NCBI GenBank assembly: GCA_032718475.1
Contig: JAUCBJ010005935.1
Coordinates: 62,001-126,000, forward strand
Length of the DNA: 64,000 bases
Source: Nemertoderma westbladi
Lineage: Eukaryota > Animalia > Xenacoelomorpha
Direction: 5' to 3'
Below the pieces are notes generated by a model that saw only the letters and a program-made list of their open reading frames with translations, made no database searches and was not told the origin of the DNA. Of this stretch, positions 1 to 56,293 are shown piece by piece; the first letter of the stretch is position 1; every line of letters starts with the position of its first letter. A program made the translations under genes and the position numbers.

Positions 1-3000
1 TAATTCAACATGGAGTGAAGGTATATCACAGCAAGGGCGGGGAAGTTTTGTTGTATATGGAGTTGGTGTAGGTGTCGTGAATGTAGCTGGACATGATGTC
101 GCTTTATATGTTGTTGGACAAGATACAGGTGTCGTTGTAGTTGTTGATTCAATGCAGTCTATTATTACATTGACTGATCCATAACTATTGCAGTTATTGT
201 TTGAGAATTTAAGTTGTAAATAAAACTCTTTAGTATCAAAACAGTCAAGCTCTTTCTTCAAAATTATTATGTAGTCTTTTATTGCGAAATAATTGTTCTT
301 TGGATCAGGGTTTATGAGATAAACAGATGGCAGTTTTCCTTGAAAGACAGTTGATATGTCCAATAATGATGTTGATGGGGATGAATTTTCTGGAATATTT
401 AATTCAGCATGGAGTGAAGGTATATCACAGCATGGGCGGGGAAGTTTTGTTGTATAGGGAGTTGGTGTTGGTGTCGTGAATGTAGCTGGGCATGATGTCG
501 CTTTATATGTTGTTGGACAAGATACAGGTGTTGTTGTAGTTGTTGATTCAATGCAGTCTATTATGATGTTTATTGAACCATAACTATTGCAGACGTTGTT
601 TGAGAATTTAAGTTGTAAATAAAACTCTTTGGTATCAAAACAGTCAAGCTCTTTCTTCAAAATTATTATGTAGTCTTTTATTGCAAAATAATTGTTCTTT
701 GGATCAGGGTTTATGAGATAAACAGATGGCAGTTTTCCTTGAAAGACAGTTGATATGTCCAATAATGATGTTGATGGGGATGAATTTTCTGGAATATTTA
801 ATTCAGCATGGAGTGAAGGTATATCACAGCATGGGCGGGGAAGTTTTGTTGTATAGGGGGTTGGTGTAGGTGTCGTGAATGTAGCTGGACATGATGTCGC
901 TTTATACGTTGTTGGACAAGATACAGGTGTAGTTGTAGTTGTTGATTCAATACAGTCTATTATGACATTGACTGATCCATAACTATTGCAGTCATTGTTT
1001 GAGAATTTAAGTTGTAAATAAAACTCTTTGGTATCAAAACAGTCAAGCTCTTTCTTCAAAATGATCATGTAACCCTTTATTTCAAAATAATTGTTCTTTG
1101 GATCAGGGTTTATGAGATAAACATATGGCAGTTTCCCTTGAAAGACAGTTGAAATGTCCAATAATGATGTTGATGGGGATGAATTTTCTGGAATATTTAA
1201 TTCAACATGGAGTGAAGGTATATCACAGCATGGGCGGGGAAGTTTTGTTGTATATGGAGTTGGTGTAGGTGTCGTAAATGTAGCTGGACATGATGTCGCT
1301 TTATATGTTGTTGGACAAGATACAGGTGTAGTTGTAGTTGTTGATTCAATGCAGTCTATTATGACATTGACTGATCCATAACTATTGCAATTATTATTTG
1401 AGAATTTAAGTTGTAAATAAAACTCTTTGGTATCGAAACAGTCAAGCTCTTTCTTCAAAATTATCATGTAATCCTTTATTTCAAAATAATTGTTCTTTGG
1501 ATCAGGGTTTATGAGATAAACAGATGGCAGTTTTCCTTGAAAGACAGTTGATATGTCCAATAATGATGTTGATGGGGATGAATTTTCTGGAATATTTAAT
1601 TCAGCATGGAGTGAAGGTATATCACAGCAAGGGCGGGGAAGTTTTGTTGTATATGGAGTTGGTGTAGGTGTCGTGAATGTAGCTGGACATGATGTCGCTT
1701 TATATGTTGTTGGACAAGATACAGGTGTAGTTGTAGTTGTTGATTCAATGCAGTCTATTATGACATTGACTGATCCATAACTATTGCAGTTATTATTTGA
1801 GAATTTAAGTTGTAAATAAAACTCGTTGGTATCAAAACAGTCAAGCTCTTTCTTCAAAATTATTATGTAGTCTTTTATTGCAAAATAATTGTTCTTTGGA
1901 TCAGGGTTTATGAGATAAACAGATGGCAGTTTTCCTTGAAAGACAGTTGAAATGTCCAATAATGATGTTGTTGGGGTTGAATTTTCTGGAATATTTAATT
2001 CAACATGGAGTGAAGGTATATCACAGCATGGGCGGGGAAGTTTTGTTGTATATGGAGTTGGTGTAGGTGTCGTGAATGTAGCTGGGCATGATGTCGCTTT
2101 ATATGTTGTTGGACAAGATACAGGTGTAGTTGTAGTTGTTGTTTCAATACAGTCTATTATTACATTGACTGATCCATAACTATTGCAGTCATTGTTTGAG
2201 AATTTAAGTTGTAAATAAAACTCTTTGGTATCAAAACAGTCAAGCTCTTTCTTCAAAATTATTATGTAGTCTTTTATTGCAAAATAATTGTTCTTTGGAT
2301 CAGGGTTTATGAGATAAACAGATGGCAGTTTTCCTTGAAAGACAGTTGATATGTCCAATAATGATGTTGATGGGGATGAATTTTCTGGAATATTTAATTC
2401 AGCATGGAGTGAAGGTATATCACAACAAGGGCGGGGAAGTTTTGTTGTATATGGAGTTGGTGTAGGTGTCGTGAATGTAGCTGGACATGATGTTGCTTTA
2501 TATGTTGTTGGACAAGATACAGGTGTAGTTGTAGTTGTTGATGCAATGCAGTCTATTATGACATTGACTGATCCATAACTATTGCAGTTATTATTTGAGA
2601 ATTTAAGTTGTAAATAAAACTCTTTGGTATCGAAACAGTCAAGCTCTTTCTTTAAAATTATCATGTAATCTTTTATTTCAAAATGATTGTTCTTTGGATC
2701 AGGGTTTATGAGATAAACAGATGGCAATTTTCCTTGAAAGACAGTTGATATGTCCAATAATGATGTTGATGGGGATGAATTTCCTGGAATATTTAATTCA
2801 GCATGGAGTGAAGGTAAATCACAGCATGGGCGGGGAAGTTTTGTTGTATAGGGGGTTGGTGTTGGTGTCGTGAATGTAGCTGGGCATGATGTCGCTTTAT
2901 ATGTTGTTGGACAAGATACAGGTGTTGTTGTAGTTGTTGATTCAATGCAGTCTATTATGATGTTTATTGAACCATAACTATTGCAGACGTTGTTTGAGAA

Positions 3001-6000
3001 TTTAAGTTGTAAATAAAACTCTTTGGTATCAAAACAGTCAAGCTCTTTCTTCAAAATTATTATGTAGTCTTTTATTGCAAAATAATTGTTCTTTGGATCA
3101 GGGTTTATGAGATAAACAGATGGCAGTTTTCCTTGAAAGACAGTTGATATGTCCAATAATGATGTTGATGGGGATGAATTTTCTGGAATATTTAATTCAG
3201 CATGGAGTGAAGGTATATCACAGCATGGGCGGGGAAGTTTTGTTGTATAGGGGGTTGGTGTAGGTGTCGTGAATGTAGCTGGACATGATGTCGCTTTATA
3301 CGTTGTTGGACAAGATACAGGTGTAGTTGTAGTTGTTGATTCAATACAGTCTATTATGACATTGACTGATCCATAACTATTGCAGTCATTGTTTGAGAAT
3401 TTAAGTTGTAAATAAAACTCTTTGGTATCAAAACAGTCAAGCTCTTTCTTCAAAATGATCATGTAACCCTTTATTTCAAAATAATTGTTCTTTGGATCAG
3501 GGTTTATGAGATAAACAGATGGCAGTTTCCCTTGAAAGACAGTTGAAATGTCCAATAATGATGTTGATGGGGATGAATTTTCTGGAATATTTAATTCAAC
3601 ATGGAGTGAAGGTATATCACAGCATGGGCGGGGAAGTTTTGTTGTATATGGAGTTGGTGTAGGTGTCGTAAATGTAGCTGGACATGATGTCGCTTTATAT
3701 GTTGTTGGACAAGATACAGGTGTAGTTGTAGTTGTTGATTCAATGCAGTCTATTATGACATTGACTGATCCATAACTATTGCAATTATTATTTGAGAATT
3801 TAAGTTGTAAATAAAACTCTTTGGTATCGAAACAGTCAAGCTCTTTCTTCAAAATTATCATGTAATCCTTTATTTCAAAATAATTGTTCTTTGGATCAGG
3901 GTTTATGAGATAAACAGATGGCAGTTTTCCTTGAAAGACAGTTGATATGTCCAATAATGATGTTGATGGGGATGAATTTTCTGGAGTATTTAATTCAGCA
4001 TGGAGTGAAGGTATATCACAGCAAGGGCGGGGAAGTTTTGTTGTATATGGAGTTGGTGTAGGTGTTGTGAATGTAGCTGGACATGATGTCGCTTTATATG
4101 TTGTTGGACAAGATACAGGTGTAGTTGTAGTTGTTGATTCAATGCAGTCTATTATGACATTGACTGATCCATAACTATTGCAGTTATTATTTGAGAATTT
4201 AAGTTGTAAATAAAACTCGTTGGTATCAAAACAGTCAAGCTCTTTCTTCAAAATTATTATGTAGTCTTTTATTGCAAAATAATTGTTCTTTGGATCAGGG
4301 TTTATGAGATAAACAGATGGCAGTTTTCCTTGAAAGACAGTTGAAATGTCCAATAATGATGTTGGGGTTGAATTTTCTGGAATATTTAATTCAACATGGA
4401 GTGAAGGTATATCACAGCATGGGCGGGGAAGTTTTGTTGTATATGGAGTTGGTGTAGGTGTCGTGAATGTAGCTGGGCATGATGTCGCTTTATATGTTGT
4501 TGGACAAGATACAGGTGTAGTTGTAGTTGTTGTTTCAATACAGTCTATTATTACATTGACTGATCCATAACTATTGCAGTCATTGTTTGAGAATTTAAGT
4601 TGTAAATAAAACTCTTTGGTATCAAAACAGTCAAGCTCTTTCTTCAAAATTATTATGTAGTCTTTTATTGCAAAATAATTGTTCTTTGGATCAGGGTTTA
4701 TGAGATAAACAGATGGCAGTTTTCCTTGAAAGACAGTTGATATGTCCAATAATGATGTTGATGGGGATGAATTTTCTGGAATATTTAATTCAGCATGGAG
4801 TGAAGGTATATCACAACAAGGGCGGGGAAGTTTTGTTGTATATGGAGTTGGTGTAGGTGTCGTGAATGTAGCTGGACATGATGTTGCTTTATATGTTGTT
4901 GGACAAGATACAGGTGTAGTTGTAGTTGTTGATGCAATGCAGTCTATTATGACATTGACTGATCCATAACTATTGCAGTTATTATTTGAGAATTTAAGTT
5001 GTAAATAAAACTCTTTGGTATCGAAACAGTCAAGCTCTTTCTTTAAAATTATCATGTAATCTTTTATTTCAAAATGATTGTTCTTTGGATCAGGGTTTAT
5101 GAGATAAACAGATGGCAATTTTCCTTGAAAGACAGTTGATATGTCCAATAATGATGTTGATGGGGATGAATTTCCTGGAATATTTAATTCAGCATGGAGT
5201 GAAGGTAAATCACAGCATGGGCGGGGAAGTTTTGTTGTATAGGGGGTTGGTGTTGGTGTCGTGAATGTAGCTGGGCATGATGTCGCTTTATATGTTGTTG
5301 GACAAGATACAGGTGTTGTTGTAGTTGTTGATTCAATGCAGTCTATTATGATGTTTATTGAACCATAACTATTGCAGACCTTGTTTGAGAATTTAAGTTG
5401 TAAATAAAACTCTTTGGTATCAAAACAGTCAAGCTCTTTCTTCAAAATTATTATGTAGTCTTTTATTGCGAAATAATTGTTCTTTGGATCAGGGTTTATG
5501 AGATAAATTGATGGCAGTTTTCCTTGAAAGACAGTTGATATGTCCAATAATGATGTTGATGGGGATGAATTTTCTGGAATATTTAATTCAGCATGGAGTG
5601 AGGGTATATCACAGCATGGGCGGGGAAGTTTTGTTGTATAGGGGGTTGGTGTAGGTGTTGTGAATGTAGCTGGACATGATGTCGCTTTATACGTTGTTGG
5701 ACAAGATACAGGTGTAGTTGTAGTTGTTGATTCAATACAGTCTATTATGACATTGACTGATCCATAACTATTGCAGTTATTGTTTGAGAATTTAAGTTGT
5801 AAATAAAACTCTTTGGTATCGAAACAGTCAAGCTCTTTCTTCAAAATGATCATGTAATCCTTTATTTCAAAATAATTGTTCTTTGGATCAGGGTTTATGA
5901 GATAAACAGATGGCAGTTTTCCTTGAAAGACATTTGAAATGTCCAATAATGATGTTGTTGGGGTTGAATTTTCTGGAATATTCAATTCAACATGGAGTGA

Positions 6001-8820
6001 AGGTATATCACAGCAAGGGCGGGGAAGTTTTGTTGTATATGGAGTTGGTGTAGGTGTCGTAAATGTAGCTGGACATGATGTCGCTTTATATGTTGTTGGA
6101 CAAGATACAGGTGTAGTTATAGTTGTTGATTCAATGCAGTCTATTATGACATTGACTGATCCATAACTATTGCAGTTATTATTTGAGAATTTAAGTTGTA
6201 AATAAAACTCTTTGGTATCAAAACAGTCAAGCTCTTTCTTCAAAATGATCATGTAATCGTTTATTTCAAAATAATTATTCTTTGGATCAGGGTTTATGAG
6301 ATAAACAGATGGCAGTTTTCCTTGAAAGACAGTTGAAATGTCCAATAATGATGTTGTTGGGGTTGAATTTTCTGGAATATTTAATTCAACATGGAGTGAA
6401 GGTATATCACAGCAAGGGCGGGGAAGTTTTGTTGTATATGGAGTTGGTGTAGGTGTCGTGAATGTAGCTGGACATGATGTCGCTTTATATGTTGTTGGAC
6501 AAGATACAGGTGTAGTTGTAGTTGTTGCTTCAATACAGTCTATTATTACATTGACTGATCCATAACTATTGCAGTCATTGTTTGAGAATTTAAGTTGTAA
6601 ATAAAACTCTTTGGTATCAAAACAGTCAAGCTCTTTCTTCAAAATGATCATATAATCTTTTATTTTAAAATAATTGTTCTTTGGATCAGGGTTTATGATA
6701 TAAACAGATGGCAGTTTTCCTTGAAAGACAGTTGAAATGTCCAATAATGATGTTGTTGGGGTTGAATTTTCTGGAATATTTAATTCAACATGGAGTGAAG
6801 GTATATCACAGCAAGGGCGGGGAAGTTTTGTTGTATATGGAGTTGGTGTAGGTGTCGTGAATGTAGCTGGACATGATGTCGCTTTATATGTTGTTGGACA
6901 AGATACAGGTGTAGTTGTAGTTGTTGCTTCAATACAGTCTATTATTACATTGACTGATCCATAACTATTGCAGTCATTGTTTGAGAATTTAAGTTGTAAA
7001 TAAAACTCTTTGGTATCAAAACAGTCAAGCTCTTTCTTCAAAATTATAATGTAGTCTTTTATTGCAAAATAATTGTTCTTTGGATCAGGGTTTATGAGAT
7101 AAACAGATGGCAGTTTTCCTTGAAAGACAGTTGATATGTCCAATAATGATGTTGATGGGGATGAATTTTCTGGAATATTTAATTCAGCATGGAGTGAAGG
7201 TATATCACAACAAGGGCGGGGAAGTTTTGTTGTATACGGAGTTGGTGTAGGTGTCGTGAATGTAGCTGGACATGATGTTGCTTTATATGTTGTTGGACAA
7301 GATACAGGTGTAGTTGTAGTTGTTGATTCAATGCAGTCTATTATGACATTGACTGATCCATAACTATTGCAGTTATTATTTGAGAATTTAAGTTGTAAAT
7401 AAAACTCTTTGGTATCGAAACAGTCAAGCTCTTTCTTTAAAATTATTATGTAGTCTTTTATTGCAAAATAATTGTTCTTTGGATCAGGGTTTATGAGATG
7501 AACAGATGGCAGTTTTCCTTGAAAGACAGTTGATATGTCCAATAATGATGTTGATGGGGATGAATTTTCTGGAATATTTAATTCAGCATGGAGTGAAGGT
7601 ATATCACAACAAGGGCGGGGAAGTTTTGTTGTATATGGAGTTGGTGTAGGTGTCGTGAATGTAGCTGGACATGATGTTGCTTTATATGTTGTTGGACAAG
7701 ATACAGGTGTAGTTGTAGTTGTTGATTCAATGCAGTCTATTATGACATTGACTGATCCATAACTATTGCAGTTATTATTTGAGAATTTAAGTTGTAAATA
7801 AAACTCTTTGGTATCAAAACAGTCAAGCTCTTTTTTCAAAATTATTATGTAGTCTTTTATTGCAAAATAATTGTTCTTTGGGTCAGGGTTTATGAGATGA
7901 ACAGATGGCAGTTTTCCTTGAAAGACAGTTGATATGTCCAATAATGATGTTGATGGGGATGAATTTTCTGGAATATTTAATTCAGCATGGAGTGAAGGTA
8001 TATCACAACAAGGGCGGGGAAGTTTTGTTGTATATGGAGTTGGTGTAGGTGTCGTGAATGTAGCTGGACATGATGTTGCTTTATATGTTGTTGGACAAGA
8101 TACAGGTGTAGTTGTAGTTGTTGATTCAATGCAGTCTATTATGACATTGACTGATCCATAACTATTGCAGTTATTATTTGAGAATTTAAGTTGTAAATAA
8201 AACTCTTTGATATCAAAACAGTCAAGCTCTTTCTTCAAAATTATTATGTAGTCTTTTATTGCAAAATAATTGTTCTTTGGATCAGGGTTTATGAGATAAA
8301 CAGATGGCAGTTTTCCTTGAAAGACAGTTGATATGTCCAATAATGATGTTGATGGGGATGAATTTTCTGGAATATTTAATTCTGCATGGAGTGAAGGTAT
8401 GTCACAACAAGGGCGGGGAAGTTTTGTTGTATACGGAGTTGGTGTAGGTGTCGTGAATGTAGCTGGGCATGATGTCGCTTTATATGTTGTTGGACAAGAT
8501 ACAGGTGTTGTTGTAGTTGTTGATTCAATGCAGTCTATTACGATGTTTATTGAACCATAACTATTGCAGTTTTTGTTTGAGAATTTAAGTTGTAAATAAA
8601 ACTCCTTGGTGTCAAAACAATCTAATTCTTTCATCAAAATTAATATATAGTCATTTAGAGCAAAATAATTATTTTTTGGATCCTGATTTATAATAAATAC
8701 TGAAGGTAGTTGTCCATGAAGCATTATTGATGAATCCAATAACTGTGTTGATGGCATTGTGTTATCTGGGATAGATAAATCAGCATGGAAAGAGGGGAGG
8801 TCGCAGCAGTTTATGGGTAA
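1..8820 (-). repeat. Coding tandem array A: about 22 copies of a 399-bp (133-aa) unit, truncated by the window edge
   Basis: Marker atgtccaataatgatg recurs at 356, 755, 1154 ... 8333 (399-bp spacing, one 396-bp unit with an in-frame 3-bp deletion near 4360), with a diverged copy near 8732. Confidence 0.97.
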
Positions 8821-11800
8821 ATTTGTAGGACAAGGTGTTGGGGGAGGCATTGTTGGTAAAACCTCAAATACTGGACAAATCAATGGACAGAGAGGTTGTA
8901 ACAACATCTCAGAAATAGCTATTGGATATCGATTTGGTTGTAAAATATCAATATCATTGAGTGAATTTCGGAGCTGCACACTGCTTGCAAGTATTGGATT
9001 TGTACCATCAATGATAATTGCCATTAAAATTATTGCATATGTAGACAAAACCTCATTGCAATCAGTGTCATAATGTTGTTTAATTGCATATATAGATGTC
9101 CGAAATGAATTGGGAGTTTCTGCATTAAGCTCTGCCAAGAAGTCTCGTTCCTTGGAAGCAATAACAGATGGGTCTTCTTCTTTTGTAAGCAATATTAATT
9201 GGTAATCTTCATTAGTTACACAAATATCAATATTAACACTATTGCTTTCAGATGTCCCAATATCTGTTGCTCTAGCAACACATTGAAAACATTCACCTTT
9301 TAGTGCTGTAATATAATCTGATGTTCGTAGTATACCAGTTGTTCTGTCAATAGTAAATGACAAACATTTGTTAGAACTAACTAGACTATATTCTGTTCTT
9401 CCATTTCCAACAGTGTCTTTATCACTTGTGGTGAGTGTAGCAATGAAGCTGTGTGGAGCTACACAAGCATCTAAAATGAATTGATATTCGTTATCAAATT
9501 GTGGAGGATTGTCATTTGTATCCAGAATTGAAACATCAATAACAGCTATAGCCTCGCATAATGCTCCAATCAAATTAACTTTAACTATATGCCTGTCATT
9601 GATTTCAAAATCGGAATTAACAATATCAACTGCCTTGTTTCTAACTAGAAAGTTGTTTAAGTCACTTCCACTGCTGACGCTACCAATACTAATACTCTGT
9701 AAAGACCCCAAATTGATATAATCATGGAGTTCCACAAATTGTGTATTTTCTGTTATCTCCACAGCATTATATAAGCCATAACACCAGTCTGGTAGCTGGG
9801 ACGAGCATCTACTGGCACATCTTATGGCATCGTAGTGATCGATATAATTCAAACCATTACTTAGAAGTTCTGCAGTTACATCAGTAAGATCACTACTTAT
9901 TAATGTATATATCTGGTTGGTATTCATGAGTTTGTATTCATCATTAGTAGAAAAGTCACTTAAACGCACTGCAGTGAATTCAACTGTTGTTTCAGCTGTT
10001 TTAAGGACGCAATTCTTATCATACCGCGCATGTGCATTATTTACAATAATATGATTTTGTTTTAAATTTAATGTGTTTGAAAGTATTTGTTTCACTTGTT
10101 CAATCGACTTTTCAACCTCATTCAGTGGATTATTGAAGTGGATGGCAGCTAAATTAGAAGCAGTTTGAACACAAAGATTAGCATTTGTGCGCTTGCTATG
10201 CTCACCTTGATCTACAACTTGTGGTATACATAATTTGCATGCTCCTATTTCACTTTCAACAGGCTCTCTCTCAAGACGAACCATACCTGTTTTATCATTA
10301 ACAGAAAATGGTGCACAATTTGTTAAACTGTATGTGAGTTCATCTAAAGGGTCTGCATCTTGGGCGATAAGTTTAACTACTTCAGTCCCCAATTTATCAC
10401 ATTCATTAGCTACACCAAAAAAGGTATTTTCAGTGAACCGTGGAAATTCATCATTTATGTTTTGTACATTGATAGTCACTGTAGCAAAACGTACACAATG
10501 TTGCAATAAAACTTTGACGCTGAGAATGTATTTAGTTGAACCTTCATCATAGTTAAGTGCAGAAATTGTTACTATTTTATTTGGATTTTCTACACCAAAT
10601 AGACCTTGAATGTCCCCTTTAACAATTTCAATTTCAGTTACACCATCAACATTTATAATCCCAACTTCAGCACCAGCAATATTTTCATCTACCTTGAATT
10701 CTTCATAAATTGCATCTGAAAAGATACATGATACCATTGGAGTTGTAGTAGGGCACTGTATTGGTTCAGCTGTTGTAGTAATTTCAATACAATCAATATT
10801 TATGTTTAATGACCCATAACTGTTACAGTTGTTATTGAACAATTTAAGTTGTAAATAAAACTCTTTGGTATCGAAACAGTCAAGCTCTTTCATCAACAGA
10901 ATCTTATAGTCTTTTACAGTGAAATAATTGTTCTTTGGATCTGGATTTATCAGATAAACAGATGGCAGTTTTCCTTGAAAGACTGCTGATATGTCTAATA
11001 ATGATGTTGATATTGGTGAATTTTCTGGAATAGTCAATTCAGCATGGAGTGAAGGTATATCACAGCATGGACGGGGAAGTTTTGTTGTATATGGGGTTGG
11101 TGTAGGTGTCGTGAGTGTAGCTGGGCATGATGTCGCTTTATATGTAGTTGGACAAGATACAGGAGTAGTTGTAGTTGTTGATTCAATGCAGTCTATTATG
11201 ACATTTACTGAACCATAACTATTGCAATTATTATCTGAGAATTTAAGTTGTAAATAAAACTCTTTGGTATCGAAACAGTCAAGCTCTTTCATCAACAGTA
11301 TCTTATAGTCTTTTACAGCGAAATAATTTTTCTTTGGATCTGGATTTATCAGATATACAGATGGGACTTTTCCTTGAAAGACTGCTGATATGTCCAATAA
11401 TGATGTTGATATTGGTGAATTATCTGGAATAGATAATTCAACATGGAGTGACGGTATATCACAGCAAGGGCGGGGAAGTTTAGTTGTATATGGGGTTGGT
11501 GTATGTGTCGTGAATGTAGCTGGGCATGATGTTGCTTTATATGTTGTTGGACAAGATACAGGAGTTGTTGTAGTTGTTGATTCAATGCAGTCTATTATGA
11601 CATTTACTGAACCATAACTTTTACAGTTGTTGTTAGAAAACTTAAGTTGTAAATAAAACTCTTTGGTATCGAAACAGTCAAGCTCATTCATCAACAGTAT
11701 CTTATAGTCTTTTACAGCGAAATAATTGTTCTTTGGATCTGGATTTATCAGATAAACAGATGGGAGTTTTCCTTGAAAAATTGCTGATATGTCCAATAAT

Positions 11801-14800
11801 GATGTTGATATTGGTGAATTATCTGGAATAGATAATTCAACATGGAGTGAAGGTATATCACAGCATGGGTGGGGAAGTTTAGTTGTATATGGGGTTGGTG
11901 TAGGTGTCGTGAATGTAGCTGGGCATGATGTTGCTTTATATGTTGTTGGACAAGATACAGGAGTAGTTGTAGTTGTTGATTCAATGCAGTCTATTATGAC
12001 ATTTACTGAACCATAACTTTTACAGTTGTTGTTAGAAAATTTAAGTTGCAAATAAAACTCTTTGGTATCGAAACAGTCAAGCTCTTTCATCAACAGTATC
12101 TTATAGTCTTTTACAGCGAAGTAATTGTTCTTTGGATCTGGATTTATCAGATAAACAGATGGGAGTTTTCCTTGAAAGACTGCTGATATGTCCAATAATG
12201 ACGTTGATATTGGTGAATTATCTGGAATAGATAATTCTGCATGTAGTGAAGGTATATCACAGCATGGGTGGGGAAGTTTTGTTGTATAGGGAGTTGGAGT
12301 AGGTGTTGTTAAAGTAGCAGGACATGTTGTTGCTTTATAAGTAGTTGGACAAGGTACAGGAGTAGTTGTAGTTGTTGATTCAATGCAGTCTATTATGATA
12401 TTTACTGAACCATAACTTTTACAGTTGTTGTTAGAAAACTTAAGTTGCAAATAAAACTCTTTGGTATCGAAACAGTCAAGCTCTTTCATCAACAGTATCT
12501 TATAGTCTTTTACAGCGAAATAATTGTTCTTTGGATCTGGATTTATCATATAAACAGATGGCCATTTTCCTTGAAAGACAGTAGATATGTCCAATAATGA
12601 TGTTGATGGGGATGAATTTTCTGGAATATTTAATTCAGCATGGAGTGAAGGTATATCACAGCAAGGGCGGGGAAGTTTTGTTGTATAGGGAGTTGGAGTA
12701 GGTGTTGTTAAAGTAGCAGGACATGTTGTTGCTTTATAAGTAGTTGGACAAGATACAGGAGTAGCTGTAGTTGTTGATTCAATGCAGTCTATTATGAAAT
12801 TTATTGAACCATATCTTTTACAGTTGTTGTTAGAAAACTTAAGTTGCAAATAAAACTCCTTGGTATCGAAACAGTCAAGCTCTTTCATCAACAGTATCTT
12901 ATAGTCTTTTACAGCGAAATAATTGTTCTTTGGATCTGGATTTATCAGATAAACAGATGGGAGTTTTCCTTGAAAGACTGCTGATATGTCCAATAATGAT
13001 GTTGATATTGGTGAATTATCTGGAATAGATAATTCTGCATGTAGTGAAGGTATATCACAGCATGGGCGGGGAAGTTTTGTTGTACAAGGTGTTGGAGTAG
13101 GTGTTGTTAAAATAGCTGGGCATGATGTCGCTTTATATGTTGTTGGACAAGATACCGGAATAGTTGTAGTTGTGGATTCAATGCAGTCTATTATGACATT
13201 TACTGAACCATAACTTCTACAGTTGTTGTTAGAAAACTTAAGTTGCAAATAAAACTCTTTGGTATCGAAACAGTCAAGCTCTTTCATCAACAGTATCTTA
13301 TAGTCTTTTACAACGAAATAATTGTTCTTTGGATCTGGATTTATCAGATAAACAGATGGCCATTTTCCTTGAAAGACTGCTGATATGTCCAATAATGATG
13401 TTGATATTGGTGAATTATCTGGAATAGATAATTCTGCATGTAGTGAAGGTATATCACAGCATGGGCGGGGAAGTTTTGTTGTATAGGGAGTTGGAGTAGG
13501 TGTTGTTAAAGTAGCAGGACATGTTGTTGCTTTATAAGTAGTTGGACAAGATACAGGAGTAGCTGTAGTTGTTGATTCAATGCAGTCTATTATGACATTT
13601 ATTGAACCATATCTTTTACAGTTGTTGTTAGAAAACTTAAGTTGCAAATAAAACTCCTTGGTATCGAAACAGTCAAGCTCTTTCATCAACAGTATCTTAT
13701 AGTCTTTTACAGCGAAATAATTGTTCTTTGGATCTGGATTTATCAGATAAACAGATGGGAGTTTTCCTTGAAAGACTGCTGATATGTCCAATAATGATGT
13801 TGATATTGGTGAATTATCTGGAATAGATAATTCTGCATGTAGTGAAGGTATATCACAGCATGGGCGGGGAAGTTTTGTTGTACAAGGTGTTGGAGTAGGT
13901 GTTGTTAAAATAGCTGGGCATGATGTCGCTTTATATGTTGTTGGACAAGATACCGGAGTAGTTGTAGTTGTGGATTCAATGCAGTCTATTATGACATTTA
14001 CTGATCCATAACTATTACAGTTGTTGTTGGAGAATTTAAGTTGTAAATAGAACTCTTTGGTATCAAAACAGTCAAGCTCTTTCTTCAAAATTATTATGTA
14101 GTCTTTTATAGCAAAATAATTGTTCTTTGGATCAGGGTTTATGAGATAAACAGATGGCAGTTTTCCTTGAAATACTGCTGATATGTCCAATAATGATGTT
14201 GATGTTAGTGAATTATCTGGAATAGATAATTCAGCATGTAGTGAAGGTATATCACAGCATGGGCGGGGAAGTTTTGTTGTACAAGGTGTTGGAGTAGGTG
14301 TTGTTAAAATAGCTGGGCATGATGTCGCTTTATATGTTGTTGGACAAGATACCGGAGTAGTTGTAGTTGTTGATTCAATGCAGTCTATTATGACATTTAC
14401 TGAACCATAACTTCTACAGTTGTTGTTAGAAAACTTAAGTTGCAAATAAAACTCTTTGGTATCGAAACAGTCAAGCTCTTTCATCAACAGTATCTTATAG
14501 TCGTTTACAACGAAATAATTGTTCTTTGGATCTGGATTTATCAGATAAACAGATGGGAGTTTTCCTTGAAAGACTGCTGATATGTCCAATAATGATGTTG
14601 ATATTGGTGAATTATCTGGAATAGATAATTCTGCATGTAGTGAAGGTATATCACAGCATGGGCGGGGAAGTTTTGTTGTATAGGGAGTTGGAGTAGGTGT
14701 TGTTAAAGTAGCAGGACATGTTGTTGCTTTATAAGTAGTTGGACAAGATACAGGAGTAGTTGTAGTTGTTGATTCAATGCAGTCTACAATGATATTTACT

Positions 14801-17800
14801 GAACCATAACTTTTACAGTTGTTGTTAGAAAACTTAAGTTGCAAATAAAACTCTTTGGTATCGAAACAGTCAAGCTCTTTCATCAATAGTATCTTATAGT
14901 CTTTTACAGCGAAATAATTGTTCTTTGGATCAGGGATTATGAGATAAACAGATGGCAGTTTTCCTTGAAATATTGCTGATATATCCAATAATGATGTTGA
15001 TATTTGTGAATTATCTGGAATAGATAATTCAGTATGTAGTGAAGGTATATCACAGCATGGGCGGGGAAGTTTTGTTGTACAAGGTGTTGGAGTAGGTGTT
15101 GTTAAAATAGCTGGGCATGATGTCGCTTTATATGTTGTTGGACAAGATACCGGAGTAGTTGTAGTTGTGGATTCAATGCAGTCTATTATGATATTTACTG
15201 ATCCATAACTATTACAGTTGTTGTTGGAGAATTTAAATTGTAAATAGAACTCTTTGGTATCAAAACAGTCAAGCTCTTTCTTCAAAATTATCATATAATC
15301 TTTTAAAGCAAAATAATTGTTCTTTGGATCTGGATTTATGAGATAAACAGATGGCAGTTCTCCTTGAAATATTGCCGATATATCCAATAATGATGTTGAT
15401 ATTGGTGAATTATCTGGAATAGATAATTCAGCATGTAGTGAAGGAATATCACAGCATGGGCGGGGAAGTTTTGTTGTACAAGGTGTTGGAGTAGGTGTTG
15501 TTAAAATAGCTGGGCATGATGTCGCTTTATATGTTGTTGGACAAGATACCGGAGTAGTTGTAGTTGTGGATTCAATGCAGTCTATTATGATATTTACTGA
15601 TCCATAACTATTACAGTTGTTGTTGGAGAATTTAAATTGTAAATAGAACTCTTTGGTATCAAAACAGTCAAGCTCTTTCTTCAAAATTATCATATAATCT
15701 TTTAAAGCAAAATAATTGTTCTTTGGATCTGGATTTATGAGATAAACAGATGGCAGTTCTCCTTGAAATATTGCCGATATATCCAATAATGATGTTGATA
15801 TTGGTGAATTATCTGGAATAGATAATTCAGCATGTAGTGAAGGAATATCACAGCAAGGGCGGGGAAGTTTTGTTGTACAAGGTGTTGGAGTAGGTGTTGT
15901 TAAAATAGCTGGGCATGATGTCGCTTTATATGTTGTTGGACAAGATACCGGAGTAGTTGTAGTTGTGGATTCAATGCAGTCTATTATGATATTTACTGAT
16001 CCATAACTATTACAGTTGTTGTTGGAGAATTTAAATTGTAAATAGAACTCTTTGGTATCAAAACAGTCAAGCTCTTTCTTCAAAATTATCATATAATCTT
16101 TTAAAGCAAAATAATTGTTCTTTGGATCTGGATTTATGAGATAAACAGATGGCAGTTCTCCTTGAAATATTGCCGATATATCCAATAATGATGTTGATAT
16201 TGGTGAATTATCTGGAATAGATAATTCAGCATGTAGTGAAGGTATATCACAGCATGGGCGGGGAAGTTTTGTTGTACAAGGTGTTGGAGTAGGTGTTGTT
16301 AAAATAGCTGGGCATGATGTCGCTTTATATGTTGTTGGACAAGATACCGGAGTAGTTGTAGTTGTGGATTCAATGCAGTCTATTATGATATTTACTGATC
16401 CATAACTATTACAGTTGTTGTTGGAGAATTTAAATTGTAAATAGAACTCTTTGGTATCAAAACAGTCAAGCTCTTTCTTCAAAATTATCATATAATCTTT
16501 TAAAGCAAAATAATTGTTCTTTGGATCTGGATTTATGAGATAAACAGATGGCAGTTCTCCTTGAAATATTGCCGATATATCCAATAATGATGTTGATATT
16601 GGTGAATTATCTGGAATAGATAATTCAGCATGTAGTGAAGGAATATCACAGCAAGGGCGGGGAAGTTTTGTTGTATATGGGGTTGGTGTAGGTGTCGTGA
16701 ATGTAGCTGGGCATGATGTCGCTTTATATGTTGTTGGACAAGATACTGGAGTTGTTGTAGTTGTTGATTCAATGCAGTCTATTATGACATTTACTGATCC
16801 ATAACTATTGCAGTTATTATTTGAGAATTTAAGTTGTAAATAGAACTCTTTGGTATCGAAACAGTCAAGCTCTTTCTTCAAAATTATCATATAATCTTTT
16901 ATAGCAATATAATTGTTCTTTGGATCAGGGTTTATGAGATAAACAGATGGCAGTTTTCCTTGAAATACTGCTGATATGTCCAATAATGATGTTGATGTTA
17001 GTGAATTATCTGGAATAGATAATTCAGCATGTAGTGAAGGTATATCACAGCAAGGGCGGGGAAGTATTGTTGTACAAGGTGTTGGAGTAGGTGTTGTTAA
17101 AATAGCTGGGCATGATGTCGCTTGATATGTAGTTGGACAAGATACAGGTGTTGTGGTAGTTGTTGATTCAATGCAGTCTATTATGATATTGACAGAACCG
17201 TAACTATTGCAGTTATTGTTTGAGAATTTAAGTTGTAAATAAAATTCTTTGGTATCGAAACAGTCAAGCTCTTTCTTCAGAATTATTATGTAGTCTTTTA
17301 TAGCAAAATAATTATTCCTTGGATCAGGGTTTATGAGATAAACAGATGGCAGTTTTCCTTGAAATACTGCTGATATGTCCAATAATGATGTTGATATTGG
17401 TGAATTATCTGGAATAGATAATTCAGCATGTAGTGAAGGTATATCACAGCAAGGGCGGGGAAGTTTTGTTGCACAAGGTGTTGGAGTAGGTGTTGTTAAA
17501 ATAGCTGGGCATGATGTTGCTTTATAGGTAGTTGGACAAGATACAGGTGTTGTGGTAGTTGTTGATTCAATGCAGTCTATTATGACATTTACTGATCCAT
17601 AACTATTACAGTTGTTGTTGGAAAATTTAAGTTGTAAATAAAACTCTTTGGTATCGAAACAGTCAAGCTCTTTCTTCAAAATTATCATATAATCTTTTAT
17701 AGCAAAATAATTGTTCTTTGGATCTGGATTTATGAGATAAACAGATGGCAGTTCTCCTTGAAATATTGCCGATATATCCAATAATGATGTTGATATTGGT

Positions 17801-18753
17801 GAATTATCTGGAATAGATAATTCAACATGGAGTGAAGGTATATCACAGCATGGGCGGGGAAGTTTTGTTGTATATGGTGTTGGTGTAGGTGTTGTGAATG
17901 TAGCTGGGCATGATGTCGCTTTATATGTTGTTGGACAAGATACTGGAGTTGTTGTAGTTGTTGATTCAATGCAGTCTATTATGACATTGACTGATCCATA
18001 ACTATTGCAGTCATTGTTTGAGAATTTAAGTTGTAAATAAAACTCTTTGGTATCAAAACAGTCAAGCTCTTTCTTCAAAATTATCATGTAATCTTTTATT
18101 TCAAAATAATTGTTCTTTGGATCAGGGTTTATGAGATAAACAGATGGCAGTTTTCCTTGAAGTACTTCCGATATGTCCAATAATGATGTCGATATTGGTG
18201 AAGTATCTGGAATTTTTAATTCAACATGTAGTGAAGGTATATCACAGCATGGGCGGGGGAGTTTAGTTGTATATGGGGTTGGTGTAGGTGTTGTGATAGT
18301 AGCAGGACATGATGTCGCTTTATATGTAGTTGGACACGACACTGGCATATGTGTTGTTGTAATTTCTTTTCCGCATTCAACGTTGATCTTCATGGAGCCA
18401 TGCTGGAGGCAATTTCCATTTTTAAATGACAGTTGAAGATATATGTCATTAATGTCATGGCAATCGAGTTCTCTTACTAAGATTAATCTATTGAATTGTA
18501 TTTCAAAATACTTATGTTTAGGGTCTCTGTTTGTTATTTCTACACTGACTTCTGATTCTGGGAAATAGTCACCAAAATCCACAATTGTGGATAGGCCATA
18601 GCTATCAGGCACAGTGACTTCTGCGTTCAGTGTGGGGATGTGGCAACAGATAGGTGGTTGTGAAGTTGGGCATGGTGTAGGTACAATCACTGTCCCAGGT
18701 GCTTTGATATTCACTACCATAAACCCACTGCTTGGTGGTTCTAACGACTCTGC
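1..18753 (-). CDS. Giant coding exon 17 of a PCDH15/CDHR5-like mucin-cadherin; two arrays of 133-aa repeats around a unique cadherin/SEA-like core; open past the left window edge
   Basis: Acceptor tttag|GCA at 18753, starting AESLEPPSSGFMVVNIKAPG. The same minus frame reads open at 18753, across 8700-10860 (translated fully) and at position 1. An in-frame ATG near 18720 produces no ORF in the track, consistent with no stop inside the window. Cadherin motifs include NINDEFPRF, AQDAD and DTNDNPPQF. Confidence 0.9.
10745..18660 (-). repeat. Coding tandem array B: about 20 copies of the 399-bp (133-aa) unit
   Basis: Marker at 10991, 11390 ... 18173 with 399-bp spacing, plus a diverged founder-like copy at about 18360-18660 (CCHIPTLNAEVTVPDS...RELDCHD). 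Confidence 0.97.
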
Positions 18754-20276: not shown

Positions 20277-20374
20277 CTTCACTGTTATAGCAACATCGCT
20301 GACCAACGCTTCATTTAGAGTTATCTGTCCATTGTCTTTATTAATTTGTATCCCCGTGGTAGCAGTTGGAAATA
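20277..20374 (-). CDS. Cadherin exon 16
   Basis: ttatag|TA...FPTATTGIQINKDNGQITLNEALVSDVAITVK|gttggt; phases 1/0 match the neighbouring exons. Confidence 0.85.
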
Positions 20375-20626
20375 CTATAATATTAACAAATACCTTAATA
20401 AAAAAGACCTGTCAAAATTCAGAAAGAATCTAAAAAAACAATAAATATATAAATCCAGAATACTTTCTTTGACATAGTTAAAAATTAATTGAAGGTTAAT
20501 ATTATGTTAGACACTGATATGAATCAATATTTGGCATAATTGACCAACAGATGAACCAGAGAATATCTTGTATACACAAACAATAACTAATCAATCGCGC
20601 AGTAACCTTCACTACTTCACTCTCAC

Positions 20627-20769
20627 CCGAAGCAATGGAATAGGTGACTCCAGTTCCAGTAGCTTTGATCTCAGTAACTGTGTCACCCGTCGTTAAACTT
20701 TTGTAAGTATCAATGTTTGCCGGCAATATCAACGTCTCATCATATATTGCTTCATAGGTTACAGCGCAC
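20627..20769 (-). CDS. Cadherin exon 15
   Basis: ctag|G CAVTYEAIYDETLILPANIDTYKSLTTGDTVTEIKATGTGVTYSIAS g|gtgag; phases 2/1. Confidence 0.85.
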
Positions 20770-21704: not shown

Positions 21705-21808
21705 CTAAGCAAACCAGTTGGACAGGTTCCGAATTGGAGAGACAAAGTTTCACCTGGTTCTCGAATGTTAATTGTAACAGAGGTTGTAGCACTATTACCA
21801 AAGGAATC
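21705..21808 (-). CDS. Cadherin exon 14
   Basis: cacag|DSFGNSATTSVTINIREPGETLSLQFGTCPTGLL ag|gtaag; phases 0/2. Confidence 0.87.
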
Positions 21809-21972
21809 CTGTGATAATATATTTATGTTTGGTTTAATATTCATGTTTATATTCGGTTAACTAATTAATATGTATAAAATGTTACAATAGTGATAATAAT
21901 AATAATAATTATATAAACACATTAACACTAAAATAATTAATAATTAGTTCTTTAATACTATGAATATCTAAC

Positions 21973-22042
21973 CTGAGCTATGACTTGCAGAACCCTTTGA
22001 CCCGGTGAGGTAAACATCTCTGAGGAACGAATGATTCCCGTT
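21973..22042 (-). CDS. Cadherin exon 13
   Basis: ttcag|A TGIIRSSEMFTSPGQRVLQVIAQ|gttag; phases 2/0. Confidence 0.85.
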
Positions 22043-22360
22043 CTGAAATACAGTATGAATTAGACAATTCAATGGCACTAACACTACATATAACACTACT
22101 GCATGTATAAAATAAACTATTATGTGAAGAAACCTTTGCACCGTAGCGGGAAGAGTGGTAGATCTATACTGGCGAATAGTCGCTTCTATAAATCAACCAC
22201 TCATTTTTAAATTAACTATATTGACGCTAATATACTAAACTTAGCTTTATGTGATGGACATAGAATAAAGATAAATAGATAAATAAATAGATGGTAATGA
22301 TAGGCATAGGCACTACAGTATGACCACAGGTCCAGTAATATCACTTGCAACATGACTTAC

Positions 22361-22552
22361 TCTTGGTCGATTACAAAACCAGTCGCGCTTCCCGCACCGA
22401 GGCTATATGTAACATCGGCCCCAGGTTCAACTGTAACGACAGTAGCTATGGTTTCTGATGGTTCACCAGTTGCTATGGTAACGGGTAATGTTCCTTGTAT
22501 AACAGAGAATGTTGGTGTGTAGGCATTTACAGTGACAACAGCAAAAGATTGA
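22361..22552 (-). CDS. Cadherin exon 12
   Basis: ttcag|T QSFAVVTVNAYTPTFSV...ADVTYSLGAGSATGFVIDQ ga|gtaag; phases 2/2. Confidence 0.88.
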
Positions 22553-22904: not shown

Positions 22905-23110
22905 CTTGGTACCACAGAACCAGTTTCTTCTGCTCTAACCAGTAATACATACTGACTCCCAGACTGTATTGCTGAGGCTTTCATTCCCTCTGTCGTTATA
23001 GAAACCTGACCTGATCCGTCGACTTCAAACAAAGTTGCACCGTTGTTGGACACAAATGGAAGGCTGTATGCGATTGGGTTGGTCTTCGTATCTTCATCGC
23101 TAGCAGAGAC
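22905..23110 (-). CDS. Cadherin exon 11
   Basis: cacag|VSASDEDTKTNPIAYSL...LFEVDGSGQVSI...YVLLVRAEETGSVVP ag|gtgag; contains the AxDxD motif; phases 0/2. Confidence 0.92.
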
Positions 23111-23174
23111 CTGTGAAAAACGATAAAGCAGATAATGCATGCATTATATGCTGATCCGATGTGCTTATCAGATA

Positions 23175-23325
23175 TGCGCCTTTCATCCACTGGGGTCGAT
23201 AAAATGAGTACCAGTTAAATAACTGGGAGCAAATCTTGGGATAGGAGTAGCGCCCACCCCTACCCTCGGGTAGCAGCTATCGAAAGAGGAGCCTTCGGGT
23301 CGCCTCCGGCTTCGGCCGACTGTTT
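23175..23325 (+). mobile_element. Probable SINE fragment
   Basis: gcctttcatccactggggtcgataaaatgagtaccag resembles, from memory, the conserved central domain of MetaSINE-type SINEs; GC-rich island within a short intron. Confidence 0.4.
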
Positions 23326-23536
23326 GCTTTTGCTTGTTTGCTATGCTTAGGAATGCATGCATATAGGACCGACCTCTGAAAGTAAAGAGCAAGGAGGTAC
23401 TGTACCATCATTATTAAGATTATTTAATACTGCAGCATCAAACCACACATTAAGGAAAATCAAATCTATTGTTACTATAAATTTTGCAGCAACTAATCTC
23501 TCAGTCAATATTACCCTGTTGTATAAGGTGACTCAC

Positions 23537-23698
23537 CTTCACTACTCCGTTCTGATTGGGTACACCGTTTGTAGTCAGGATTATTGCAGCGGTATATTGG
23601 CTGTCTGGCACGAACTTTGGAGGCGTCTCATTAATGTCTGTTACTGTAACTGCCACTTGAGTTGACTCACTTCTACCCTGGTCATCAGTGACTGTCAC
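23537..23698 (-). CDS. Cadherin exon 10
   Basis: ttag|VTVTDDQGRSESTQVAVTVTDINETPPKF...GVVK|gtgag; DINE-PP-F linker motif; phases 0/0. Confidence 0.92.
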
Positions 23699-27204: not shown

Positions 27205-27347
27205 CTGTGACAATAAATAAACGGTGAACGGTAGGAATTGCTATACCGGTATACAAATTATTGATCGGAATATTAACCTGTTACAGCGATTAGTGTAGGC
27301 CTATATAATATGTTAAACATTTATAATAATTTGTTTATGATACTTAC

Positions 27348-38100: not shown

Positions 38101-40790
38101 TTGGTGATATAATGCTGCATTGTTGCTACAGTATCTGCTGGACCGATTGGAAATTAGTAATATAAGGCTGCATTGTTGCTATCGTATCTGCTGGTCCGGT
38201 TCTAGATTGGTGATATAATGCTGCATTGTTGCTACAGTAACGGCTGGTTCGATTGAAGATTGGTGATATAATGCTGCATTGTTGCTACAGTATCTGCTGG
38301 CCCGATTGGAAATAAGTAATATAAGGCTGCATTGTTACTACCGTACGTGCTGGTCCGATTGGAGATTAGTGATGTAAAGCTACATTGTTGCCACCGTATC
38401 TGCTGATCCGATTGGAGATTAGTAATATAAGGCTGCATTGTTACTACAGTACCTGCTGGATCGATTGGAGATTAGTGATCTAAAGCTACATTGTTGCTAC
38501 CGTATCTGCTGATCCGATTCTAGATTGGTGATATAATGCTGCATTGTTGCTACAGTAACGGCTGGTTCGATTGGAGATTGGTGATATAATGCTGCATTGT
38601 TGCTACAGTATCTGCTGGCCCGATTGGAAATTAGTAATATAAGGCTGCATTGTTGCTACCGTACGTGCTGGTCCGATTGGAGATTAGTGATATAATGCTA
38701 CATTGTTGATACCGTATCTGCTGGTCCGGTTCTAGATTGGTAATATAATGCTGCATTGTTGCTACAATACCGGCTGGTTCGATTGGAGATTGGTGATATA
38801 ATGCTGTATTGTTTCTACAGCACCGGCTGGTTCGATTGGAGATTGGTGATATAATGCTGCATTTTTGCTACAGTATCTTATGGTTCGATTGGATATTGGT
38901 GATATAATGCTGCATTGTTTCTACAGTACCGGATGGTCCGATTGGAGATTAGTGATATAAAGCTACATTGTTGCTACCGTATCTGCTGGTCCGGTTCTAG
39001 ATCGGTAATATAATGCTGCATTGTTGCTACAATACCGGCTGGTTCGATTGGAGATTGGTGATATAATGCTGCATTTTTGCTACAGTATCTTATGGTTCGA
39101 TTGGATATTGGTGATATAATGCTGCATTGTTTCTACAGTACCGGCTGGTTCGATTGGAGATTGGTGATATAATGCTGCATTGTTGCTACAGTATCTGCTG
39201 GCCCGATTGGAAATTAGTAATATAAGGCTGCATTGTTGCTATCGTATCTGCTGGTCCAGTTCTAGATTGGTAATATAATGCTGCATTGTTGCTACAATAC
39301 CGGCTGGTTGGATTGGAGATTGGTGATATAATGCTGCATTTTTTCTACAGTACCGGCTGGTTCGATTGGAGATTGGTGATATAATGCTGCATTTTTGCTA
39401 CAGTATCTTATGGTTCGATTGGATATTGATGATATAATGCTGCATTGTTTCTACAGTACCGGCTGGTTCGATTGGAGATTGGTGATATAATGCTGCATTG
39501 TTGCTACAGTACCGGCTGGTCCGATTGGAGATTAGTGATATAAAGCTACATTGTTGCTACCGTATCTGCTGGTCCGGTTCTAGGTCGGTAATATAATGCT
39601 GCATTGTTGCTACAATATCGGCTGGTTCGATTGGAGATTGGTGATATAATGCTGCATTGTTTCTACAGTACCGGCTGGTTCGATTGGAGATTGGTGATAT
39701 AATGCTGCATTGTTGCTACAGTATCTGCTGGCCCGATTGGAAATTAGTAATATAAGGCTGCATTGTTGCTATCGTATCTGCTGGTCCGGTTCTAGATTGG
39801 TAATATAATGCTGTATTGTTGCTACAATACCGGCTGGTTGGATTGGAGATTGGTGATATAATGCTGCATTGTTTCTACAGTATCTGCTGGCCCGATTGGA
39901 AATTAGTAATATTACGCTGCATTGTTGCTACCGTATCTTCTGGTCCGGTTCTAGATTGGTAATATAATGCTGCATTGTTGCTACAATACCAGCTGGTTCG
40001 ATTGCAGATTGGTGATATAATGCTGCATTGTTTCTACAGTACCGGCTGGTTCGAATGGAGATTGGTGATATAATGCTGCATTTTTGTTACAGTATCTTAT
40101 GGTTCGATTGGATATTGGTGATATAATGCTGCATTGTTTCTACAGTACCGGCTGGTTCGATTGGAGTTTGGTGATATAATGCTGCATTGTTGCTACAGTA
40201 TCTGCTGGCCCGATTGGAAATTAGTAATATAAGGCTGCATTGTTGCTATCGTATCTGCTGTCCGGTTCTAGATTGGTGATATAATACTGCATTGTTGCTA
40301 AAGCAGTACCTGCTGGTTCGATTGGAGATTAGTGAGATAAAGCTGCATTGTTGCTACCGTACGTGCTGGTCCGATTGGAGATTAGTAATATAATGCTGCA
40401 TTGCTGCTACTGTACGTGCTGGTCCGATTGGAGATTAGTGATATAAAGCTGAATTGTTGTTACAGTACCTGCTGGTTCGATTGGAAATTATATAGTTATA
40501 TAAAGCTGCATTGTTGCTACCGTACGTGTTGGTCCGATTGGAGATTAGTAATATAATGCTGCATTGCTGCTACTGTACGTGCTGGTCCGATTGGAGATTA
40601 GTGATATAAAGCTGAATTGTTGTTACAGTACCTGCTGGTTCGATTGGAAATTATATAGTTATATAAAGCTGCATTGTTGCTACCGTACGTGTTGGTCCGA
40701 TTGGAGATTAGTGATATAAAGCTGCATTGTTGCTACCGTACCTGCTGGTTCGATTGGAGATTGGTGCATATGAGCTTCATTGTTGCAGTC
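29147..40790. repeat. 53-bp intronic satellite, roughly 185 copies, interrupted at 29549-31268
   Basis: Unit gattggagattggtgatataatgctgcattgttgctacagtaccggctggttc and variants; local higher-order repeats, e.g. 318 bp between identical ORFs at 33810 and 34128. Copy number estimated from length. Confidence 0.97.
29549..31268 (-). mobile_element. 3' remnant of a Ty3/Gypsy LTR retrotransposon (integrase C-terminus, PPT, 3' LTR)
   Basis: ORF 30751-31257 has LMYGR... and the GPY/F motif KLSFRFRGPYAIV. Minus-strand PPT aagaagggggga (29958-29969) directly precedes a TGTG...CACA-bounded 409-bp LTR (29549-29957). Confidence 0.85.
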
Positions 40791-40861
40791 GGAGGTACCG
40801 CTTCACGGTCCGGGGCCTTGAACATTTCGATCCGTTGTTCTCCAGCCTTTATTCGAATGTG
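40742..40861 (-). CDS. Cadherin exon 3 (EC1, C-terminal half)
   Basis: ttgcag|HIRIKAGEQRIEMFKAPDREAVPPTATMKLICTNLQSNQQ|gtacgg; DRE motif; joins exon 4 in phase 0. Confidence 0.87.
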
Positions 40862-42558: not shown

Positions 42559-42749
42559 CTCCGTTGCATCGGCGTCGCTTGCTGTATCATCGTGTACCAA
42601 CTTGAGTGTAAAGTCTGTGTCTAGAATTCCAGATAATTCGAAGTTATCGCCGATATCCCTTGGAACATTGCCGTTCTCGTTCACATTAACTTCCAACTCG
42701 GCTCCTCCACTAAACGGCGACCCCTGTTCCGCGAAGCAAGGCAGCTGAG
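42559..42749 (-). CDS. Cadherin exon 2 (EC1, N-terminal half)
   Basis: ttccag|CT QLPCFAEQGSPFSGGAELEVNVNENGNVPRDIGDNFELSG...DATE|gtagag; phases 1/0. Confidence 0.82.
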
Positions 42750-50940: not shown

Positions 50941-51005
50941 GGGAGATGGTGTAAATACAGTACTGTATAAACAAACATTTACACGTAATATACTTAGATG
51001 GAACG

Positions 51006-55998: not shown

Positions 55999-56217
55999 CA
56001 CGAGATTAAATGACCTTGTGTAGATGGCCAAAGGGAAAGTGCTGTTTGTAGCTTGTAGGTAGTGTTGTCAAATTTGTCGTAGATAGGGTATACAGTATAT
56101 AAAGAGGAATTATTTATATTGCTTGTTTACACATTACGCTATTTGATTTCTGTTTCCAGTTCCAATGAATAAACTCAATTGTTAAATACCAATAATTACT
56201 ATTCTACTGGTACTTAC

Positions 56218-56293
56218 CCTGACACAACGAGGCTGTCCATAGCAAGAACAGCCCCAGTTGCAGCCACAAAGTAAAATAAAACGGGCCACCCAT
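56218..56293 (-). CDS. Cadherin exon 1: start codon and signal peptide
   Basis: ATG at 56293, MGGPFYFTLWLQLGLFLLWTASLCQ g|gtaagt. Hydrophobic core, perfect donor, and phase 1 completes Ala with exon 2. Confidence 0.78.

Follow-up and report, generated by a model that had tools for sequence, protein, structure and literature searches.

Cad99C, a cadherin of about 1,600 amino acids (aa), has a role in insect microvilli and, like PCDH15, carries 11 extracellular cadherin (EC) domains and a single membrane-adjacent domain (MAD). PCDH15 and CDHR5 build links of the hair-cell bundle and the gut brush border, and how the length, elasticity and calcium dependence of such links are controlled is an active question. 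The family's roles in microvillar and stereociliary links are described in PMC8691648 and 10.1101/460097. CDHR5, of the same subfamily, combines ECs with Thr/Ser/Pro-rich repeats (PMC8691648, 10.1101/2023.02.22.529570). It has 4 ECs and a single mucin tract, about 4 x 31 aa long and close to the membrane, and it lacks a MAD. FAT and CELSR have giant EC arrays and a MAD away from the membrane (10.1101/460097), but in these proteins the MAD comes after the last EC and ahead of EGF/LamG domains, and the ECs are contiguous, with no mucin linkers. Here we describe a minus-strand gene in a 64,000-nucleotide window of the Nemertoderma westbladi genome (assembly GCA_032718475.1, contig JAUCBJ010005935.1, positions 62,001 to 126,000; coordinates below are those of the window). 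It contains an intact gene model, whose predicted product is a cadherin of the PCDH15/Cad99C/CDHR5 type with a length of 7,091 aa or more.

Some proteins outside the cadherins resemble the predicted product in layout. MUC16 (CA125) and the Xenopus SEA/PTS proteins repeat a folded domain plus a Pro/Thr/Ser-rich (PTS) linker, 19 times in MUC16 (PMC10829539, PMC4948705). Their bead is a SEA domain, whereas the bead described here has a predicted cadherin fold and is repeated within one exon, in a protein that descends from a cadherin and not from a mucin. Macrostomum Mlig-ap2 (14,794 aa) is glycosylated and carries long repeats in two central arrays, 21 in one and 25 in the other (PMC6410801), but it is built on a vWD/TIL/TSP framework with no cadherin domains, and the likeness is an analogy of layout only.

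Gene model and family placement

Six-frame translation gave one minus-strand frame, from 18753 to 1, with no stop in 6,251 codons (18,753 bases); every one of the remaining five frames has 278–529 over the same stretch. Its start coincides exactly with an AG acceptor, and it runs off the window edge at position 1, which makes 7,091 aa a lower bound. Sixteen upstream exons, rebuilt by hand from the sequence, code for exactly 840 aa; all 16 introns have GT-AG ends and keep the phase, and the joined product is free of stops. The first-pass annotation, made from the letters alone, had proposed just such a series of small exons spliced in phase into a giant one, and the rebuilt model bears it out; stops or frameshifts in the giant exon, which it had named as refuting evidence if seen in raw reads, are absent from the assembled sequence. 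It had placed about seven ECs in the small exons. The ECs are there, but EC7 is finished only inside the giant exon, spanning exons 15 and 16 and the first 22 giant-exon codons. EC7 thus straddles the proposed junction 20277/18753, for which we scored 243 alternatives (the AG acceptors between 20276 and 15000, and the reading without a splice). Acceptor 18753 completes EC7 best, at 20.7 bits, against 18.1 for the runner-up and 15.0 for the unspliced reading. Splice signals, phase and domain continuity together point to the splicing given here. For exon 3, a donor at 40799 was discarded because it would drop the strand-F Cys of EC1, and 40742 was used instead.

The predicted domain order is signal peptide, EC1–7, 20 repeats of 133 aa, two EC-EC-MAD modules, and 22 full repeats plus a partial 23rd, which refines the earlier count of about 20 repeats, two modules and at least 22 repeats. 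The total is at least 53 EC folds.

Another way to read the locus is that the giant exon is optional or partly used. The chief product would then be a PCDH15-like protein of ordinary size, and the giant form a tissue-specific isoform. The mucin tract of CDHR5 is spliced in or out (10.1101/2023.02.22.529570), and base composition differs between the giant and the small exons (GC 0.35 versus 0.45; CpG observed/expected 0.35, with 0.41 in the central unique part, versus 0.93 in the small exons and 0.87 in a nardilysin-like frame in intron 1). This CpG depletion possibly reflects local methylation or a different origin. However, EC7 requires the first 22 codons of the giant exon, its 18.7 kb contain just two consensus-like donors (18478 and 10206), and selection on the repeats, described below, indicates that the long form is made in any case. 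We consider an optional giant exon improbable.

By its sequence the product is a member of the cadherin superfamily, with tandem ECs bearing DRE, DxNDN and DxD motifs. Pfam PF00028 matches exon 4 and the second central module, and canonical sets of calcium motifs are kept at five junctions (EC1/2, EC2/3, EC4/5 and both central pairs). For aa 27–870, the six best matches among 221 fetched proteins are Cad99C or Cad99C-like and collinear from EC1; EC1–6 align with 27% identity over about 660 columns. Cys30 and Cys121 of EC1 align with the Cys pair of Cad99C on strands A and F. Such a pair, with no Trp2, is a feature of Cr-3 cadherins (PCDH15, CDHR5 and Cad99C; PMC8691648), and the residues are present here, the disulfide bond itself being predicted. 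The second mark is a cysteine-stapled loop at the start of EC3 (10.1101/695502), which aligns with that of PCDH15. Its pattern occurs in 11 of the 221 proteins; the six that have it at the EC2–EC3 junction are all Cad99C-like, and the remaining five are unnamed and have it earlier. A sequence search of the PDB with exon 6 alone gave nothing real. In a tree of N-terminal ECs the window protein lies inside a set (support 96/95) with Cad99C, a beetle cadherin and fish 13-EC cadherins, and grouping with CDH23/Cad87A/Cad74A is rejected (p-AU 0.03). Since the N-terminus is collinear with Cad99C and carries both PCDH15-type cysteine marks, we assign the gene, on sequence grounds, to the PCDH15/Cad99C/CDHR5 (Cr-3) type.

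Six fish proteins in the fetched set that are named 'Fat 4-like' (P0050, P0057, P0059, P0140, P0144 and P0146) are membrane cadherins with 12–13 ECs and a MAD, near Cad99C and not Fat; they are probably misnamed.

Central modules and repeat arrays

Each of the two central modules, of about 315 aa, consists of an EC-EC pair with a canonical calcium linker and then a MAD-type domain, an arrangement shared with Cad99C and PCDH15. A MAD profile was made from 32 membrane-adjacent segments of Cad99C, CDH23, Cad87A and others. The first domain, MAD1, scores 26.1 bits against it (best of 2,000 shuffles, 9.8) with an hhalign probability of 77%, and in a global alignment falls unaided onto the MADs of all 24 full-length cadherins; alone, it found nothing real in the PDB by sequence. 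MAD2 matches the profile weakly (E 0.015 in place), and module 2 is collinear with module 1 (score 123, shuffle best 65). MAD1 can thus be identified firmly, and MAD2 is a probable MAD. A homologue search with the central region returned generic cadherins at 22–37% identity (proteins of 1,116–3,185 aa covered), and a complex prediction for two EC-MAD1 copies, run without an alignment, scored 0.01, which speaks neither for nor against a dimer. Among the 221 fetched proteins, 195 of them with ECs, the profile finds a MAD in 34 and two MADs in none. ECs after a MAD occur just in P0032, a hypothetical fish model that is possibly fused, and a Thr-rich window before the last EC in one of the 195 EC proteins, at its N-terminus.

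The repeat unit of 133 aa is made of a 93-aa domain and a 40-aa linker. Pfam made no call on the domain in the 13 repeat domains scanned, and phmmer with two repeats (269 aa) found no relatives at E 0.001 among 1.84 billion representatives. A Resistin match under the Pfam cut-off was rejected as Cys/Thr bias. With an EC profile from the fetched cadherins, 40 of the 42 repeat domains outscore the best of 2,000 shuffles. We also aligned 15 rows from the window only, namely 13 beads and the first EC of each central module; 11 of the 14 PDB matches of this alignment are cadherins, including CDH23 and PCDH15, and AlphaFold built from it a seven-stranded model (pLDDT 80.4). Foldseek placed PCDH15 EC4–7 on top for this model (E 2.7e-6, TM 0.78), VIA gave Z 12.7 and an rmsd of 2.1 over 95 residues with many cadherins tied, and Atlas returned sub-0.9 cadherin leads only for the repeat. 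Profile and model thus agree on a predicted cadherin fold for the bead.

The calcium motifs are lost in all repeats. ELDC replaces LDRE in 42 of 42, the end of the bead reads DC, and DxNDN is found in none of the common end-of-domain variants, so that Cys occupies two former motif positions, that of the Arg of DRE and that of DxNDN. From general cadherin geometry, these two may pair with each other; the Cys of strand A would pair with one of strand G, the linker would form a loop, and units with 7 Cys would keep one unpaired. Seven Cys do not vary between units, five of them in the domain and two in the linker, except for a one-residue offset in unit 1; an eighth Cys occurs in 9 of 40 units. 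The linker is 64% Pro/Thr/Ser and 37% Thr, with 17.6 Ser/Thr per 40 aa. Pro/Thr/Ser-rich tandem repeats, a feature of mucins, are thus present, though short and interrupted.

Variation among the repeats indicates that they are under purifying selection. Over 39 repeats, leaving out the diverged first unit of array 1 (41% identity), unit 20 and a 132-aa unit, pN/pS is 0.198 (domain 0.21, linker 0.13). Distinct alleles comprise 95 synonymous (91 sites) and 70 non-synonymous (308 sites), and codon position 3 holds 94 of the 165 variable columns. If 165 changes fell at random, roughly 9 should create stops, and none is observed (crude P 1e-4); the sole indel within regular units is of 3 bases.

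Growth of the gene probably came about when one EC and its linker were amplified in tandem inside the exon, a process in which unequal crossing-over is probably still active. All candidates for the ancestral EC scored below 6 bits. An origin of the beads as copies of EC1 was dropped because their second Cys sits at the start of strand G and not on strand F. Exonic repeats have reportedly been proposed as a route to mucin function (PMC9417175), and here a mucin-like function may have arisen inside a cadherin through amplification within one exon.

Such repeats raise the question whether the size is inflated by the assembly, through joined haplotypes or over-counted repeats, or whether the gene is a decaying copy. 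In array 2 a six-unit block is 99.7% identical to the next one (2,383 of 2,391 bases, with a 3-base indel), units 6, 8 and 9 are identical, and long reads have cut the MUC16 repeat count from 63 to 19 (PMC10829539). On the other hand, 38 of the 42 units are distinct at the DNA level, more than 30 repeats and the same layout remain without the suspect units, and a reading frame with no stop or frameshift and a pN/pS of 0.2 does not look like decay. A small error in the number of repeats, of a few units, is therefore possible, but the layout itself is no artefact, and we judge this the least probable of the explanations considered.

The layout combines known parts in a new way. In place of the strict PCDH15/Cad99C layout of 11 ECs, one MAD and a transmembrane helix, the window protein has no fewer than 53 EC folds. 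Both of its MAD-type domains are internal, with further ECs after them, and Thr/Pro linkers separate the beads; unlike CDHR5, it has 7 ECs ahead of the first linker and a MAD1, and mucin-type linkers alternate with EC beads at least 42 times. None of the 221 fetched proteins has this layout, and no cadherin with it was found in the literature searched, which is weak evidence as subscription papers and supplementary tables of cadherin repertoires lie outside that coverage. We therefore describe it as a new architecture within a known family, each ingredient having a precedent in CDHR5, MUC16 or the flatworm glue proteins. What the first-pass annotation had said of the protein is supported in part: its architecture has no match in the proteins fetched and the literature searched, its repeats are EC-like and its affinities lie with PCDH15, CDHR5 and Cad99C, while the roles it had suggested, as tether, glycocalyx, mucus or bioadhesive protein, remain proposals. 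The name 'mucin-cadherin hybrid' fits the Thr/Pro linkers, though not in the sense of a long continuous mucin tract, and of the two SEA/MAD-like domains the second is much the weaker.

Proposed function

We propose, with a probability of roughly one half, that apical microvilli or cilia carry this protein as a tether or coat filament of great length, probably O-glycosylated. The calcium-linked tip EC1–2 would bind a CDH23/CDHR2-type partner, as PCDH15 and CDHR5 do, and the beads would be held by disulfides in place of calcium. The linkers, with about 17 Ser/Thr each, would be O-glycosylated and serve as extended, compliant spacers. The two internal EC-EC-MAD modules could serve, in the manner of PCDH15 EC11-MAD12, as clamps of a parallel dimer or as mechanical fuses, and a membrane anchor would lie beyond the window. 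We presume from the family that the protein binds a partner, dimerises, is glycosylated, forms disulfides and is anchored. With an EC taken as 4.5 nm long and a linker residue as 0.25 nm, the part seen would measure roughly 0.6–0.7 micrometre.

Several observations weigh against this proposal or the assignments under it. No transmembrane segment or tail is present in the 7,091 aa seen, where the top 19-aa hydropathy (2.0) lies inside an EC strand, and anchoring is therefore an assumption. The window protein is much longer than tip links or intermicrovillar links, and the known geometry thus has no need of such length. In the N-terminal tree, which includes no vertebrate PCDH15 or CDHR5, the sister relation to Cad99C is weakly supported (79/58) and the branch is long. 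For MAD2 the hhalign probability is 6% (score 21.4, shuffle best 17.6), and Atlas gives it no family. The alignment behind the AlphaFold bead model includes the two central canonical ECs, which may have helped the fold, and a single-sequence fold of two repeats reached a pLDDT of 32. Finally, the odd number of Cys in 31 of 40 units (7 per unit) fits a cross-linked secreted gel equally well.

Such a gel would arise if a cadherin gene had turned into a gel-forming glycoprotein of mucus, glue or matrix, with spare cysteines cross-linking the chains. The signal peptide and missing membrane segment, the total of 333 Cys and the loss of calcium motifs in all repeats agree with this, and secreted proteins of comparable build exist in the giant two-array glue proteins of flatworms (PMC6410801) and the Xenopus proteins with alternating SEA and PTS domains (PMC4948705). 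In the EC1–EC3 tip, nevertheless, the calcium linkers are still canonical and the two cysteine marks of the family are present, as expected if a cadherin partner were still bound. Pfam found none of the VWD, C8 and TIL domains of gel-forming mucins in the central region, the first 300 aa of the giant exon and the 13 repeat domains, and the accessible portions of bioadhesion work (10.1101/2025.01.31.635879, PMC6410801, PMC9382459) do not mention cadherins. We regard a secreted gel as the main rival, less probable than the tether but more so than an optional exon or an assembly artefact.

A more far-reaching picture can be offered tentatively: a tip-link-type cadherin rebuilt as a micrometre-scale, calcium-independent, disulfide-stapled mucin filament, with a handshake tip, two arrays of beads joined by glycosylated springs, and MAD clamps duplicated halfway along the stalk. 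If true, surface-coat or adhesive proteins would gain a new structural class, and a cell-adhesion receptor would have become a mucus-like polymer by a lineage-specific route. The gene is a natural experiment at an extreme, in which the tip is the same, the stalk is about five times longer in EC count, calcium sites are replaced by cysteines, mucin spacers stand between domains and the membrane-adjacent domain has moved into the stalk. A single repeat could readily be used to test a calcium-free cadherin fold and to study mechanics at the level of single molecules. The gene is also of a type that annotation pipelines break or miss.

Introns and flanking elements

Table 1. Coordinates of the predicted cadherin gene and its domains in the window
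Feature	Position	Strand	Remark
Exon 1: ATG and predicted signal peptide (aa 1–25)	56218..56293	-	hydrophobic stretch aa 5–23
Exon 2: first part of EC1 with strand-A Cys	42559..42749	-	
Exon 3: EC1 DRE motif and strand-F Cys	40742..40861	-	
Exon 4: end of EC1, most of EC2	28779..29102	-	Pfam Cadherin E 1.8e-12
Exon 5: end of EC2 and EC3 cysteine loop	28408..28546	-	alignment to PCDH15 EC2–EC3 junction including Cys
Exons 6 (27527-27348) and 7 (27204-27047): EC3	27047..27527	-	
Exons 8 (26548-26330) and 9 (25607-25470): end of EC3, EC4	25470..26548	-	
Exons 10 (23698-23537) and 11 (23110-22905): end of EC4, EC5	22905..23698	-	
Exons 12 (22552-22361), 13 (22042-21973) and 14 (21808-21705): EC6	21705..22552	-	
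Exons 15 (20769-20627) and 16 (20374-20277): most of EC7	20277..20769	-	
Giant exon: 6,251 codons or more, still open at window edge	1..18753	-	
Last strands of EC7, start of giant exon	18688..18753	-	
Array 1: 20 x (predicted calcium-free cadherin-fold domain, 93 aa, and Thr/Pro/Cys linker, 40 aa)	10729..18648	-	
Module 1: EC-EC (canonical calcium linker) and MAD1 (9829-10155)	9829..10728	-	
Module 2: EC-EC (canonical calcium linker) and probable MAD2 (8884-9213)	8884..9786	-	
Array 2: 22 full repeats and start of 23rd	1..8808	-	

Intron 3 (29157-40786) contains a minisatellite of 185 copies of a 53-bp unit, which derives from the last 45 bases of exon 3 and the first 8 of the intron. AG|GT is kept in 18 of the 185 copies and the +1 G in 43%, and a frame read through the true exon-3 donor ends at a stop two codons later. 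None of the gene's other exon edges has been copied as a repeat. Such a 'mirage' repeat of an exon-intron boundary has been described in amphioxus (PMC3087553); the array here is of the same kind and far longer. It is interrupted at 30754-31269, on the minus strand, by a remnant of an LTR retrotransposon with a Tf2-like SH3 domain.

Intron 1 holds two minisatellites, at 43752-45597 and 45710-48848 (a 21-bp unit in about 75–85 copies and a 48-bp unit in about 65), whose long open frames are probably not coding. Nested antisense in the same intron, on the plus strand at 52253-55468, is an intronless frame of 1,071 aa for a nardilysin-like M16 peptidase. Its HxxEH zinc motif is intact; identity to any match is at most 38%, and it forms a long branch in its tree. 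Upstream of the gene, at 58324-59786 on the plus strand, lies a broken transposase with DDE_Tnp_1_7 matches, which we take to be of piggyBac type.

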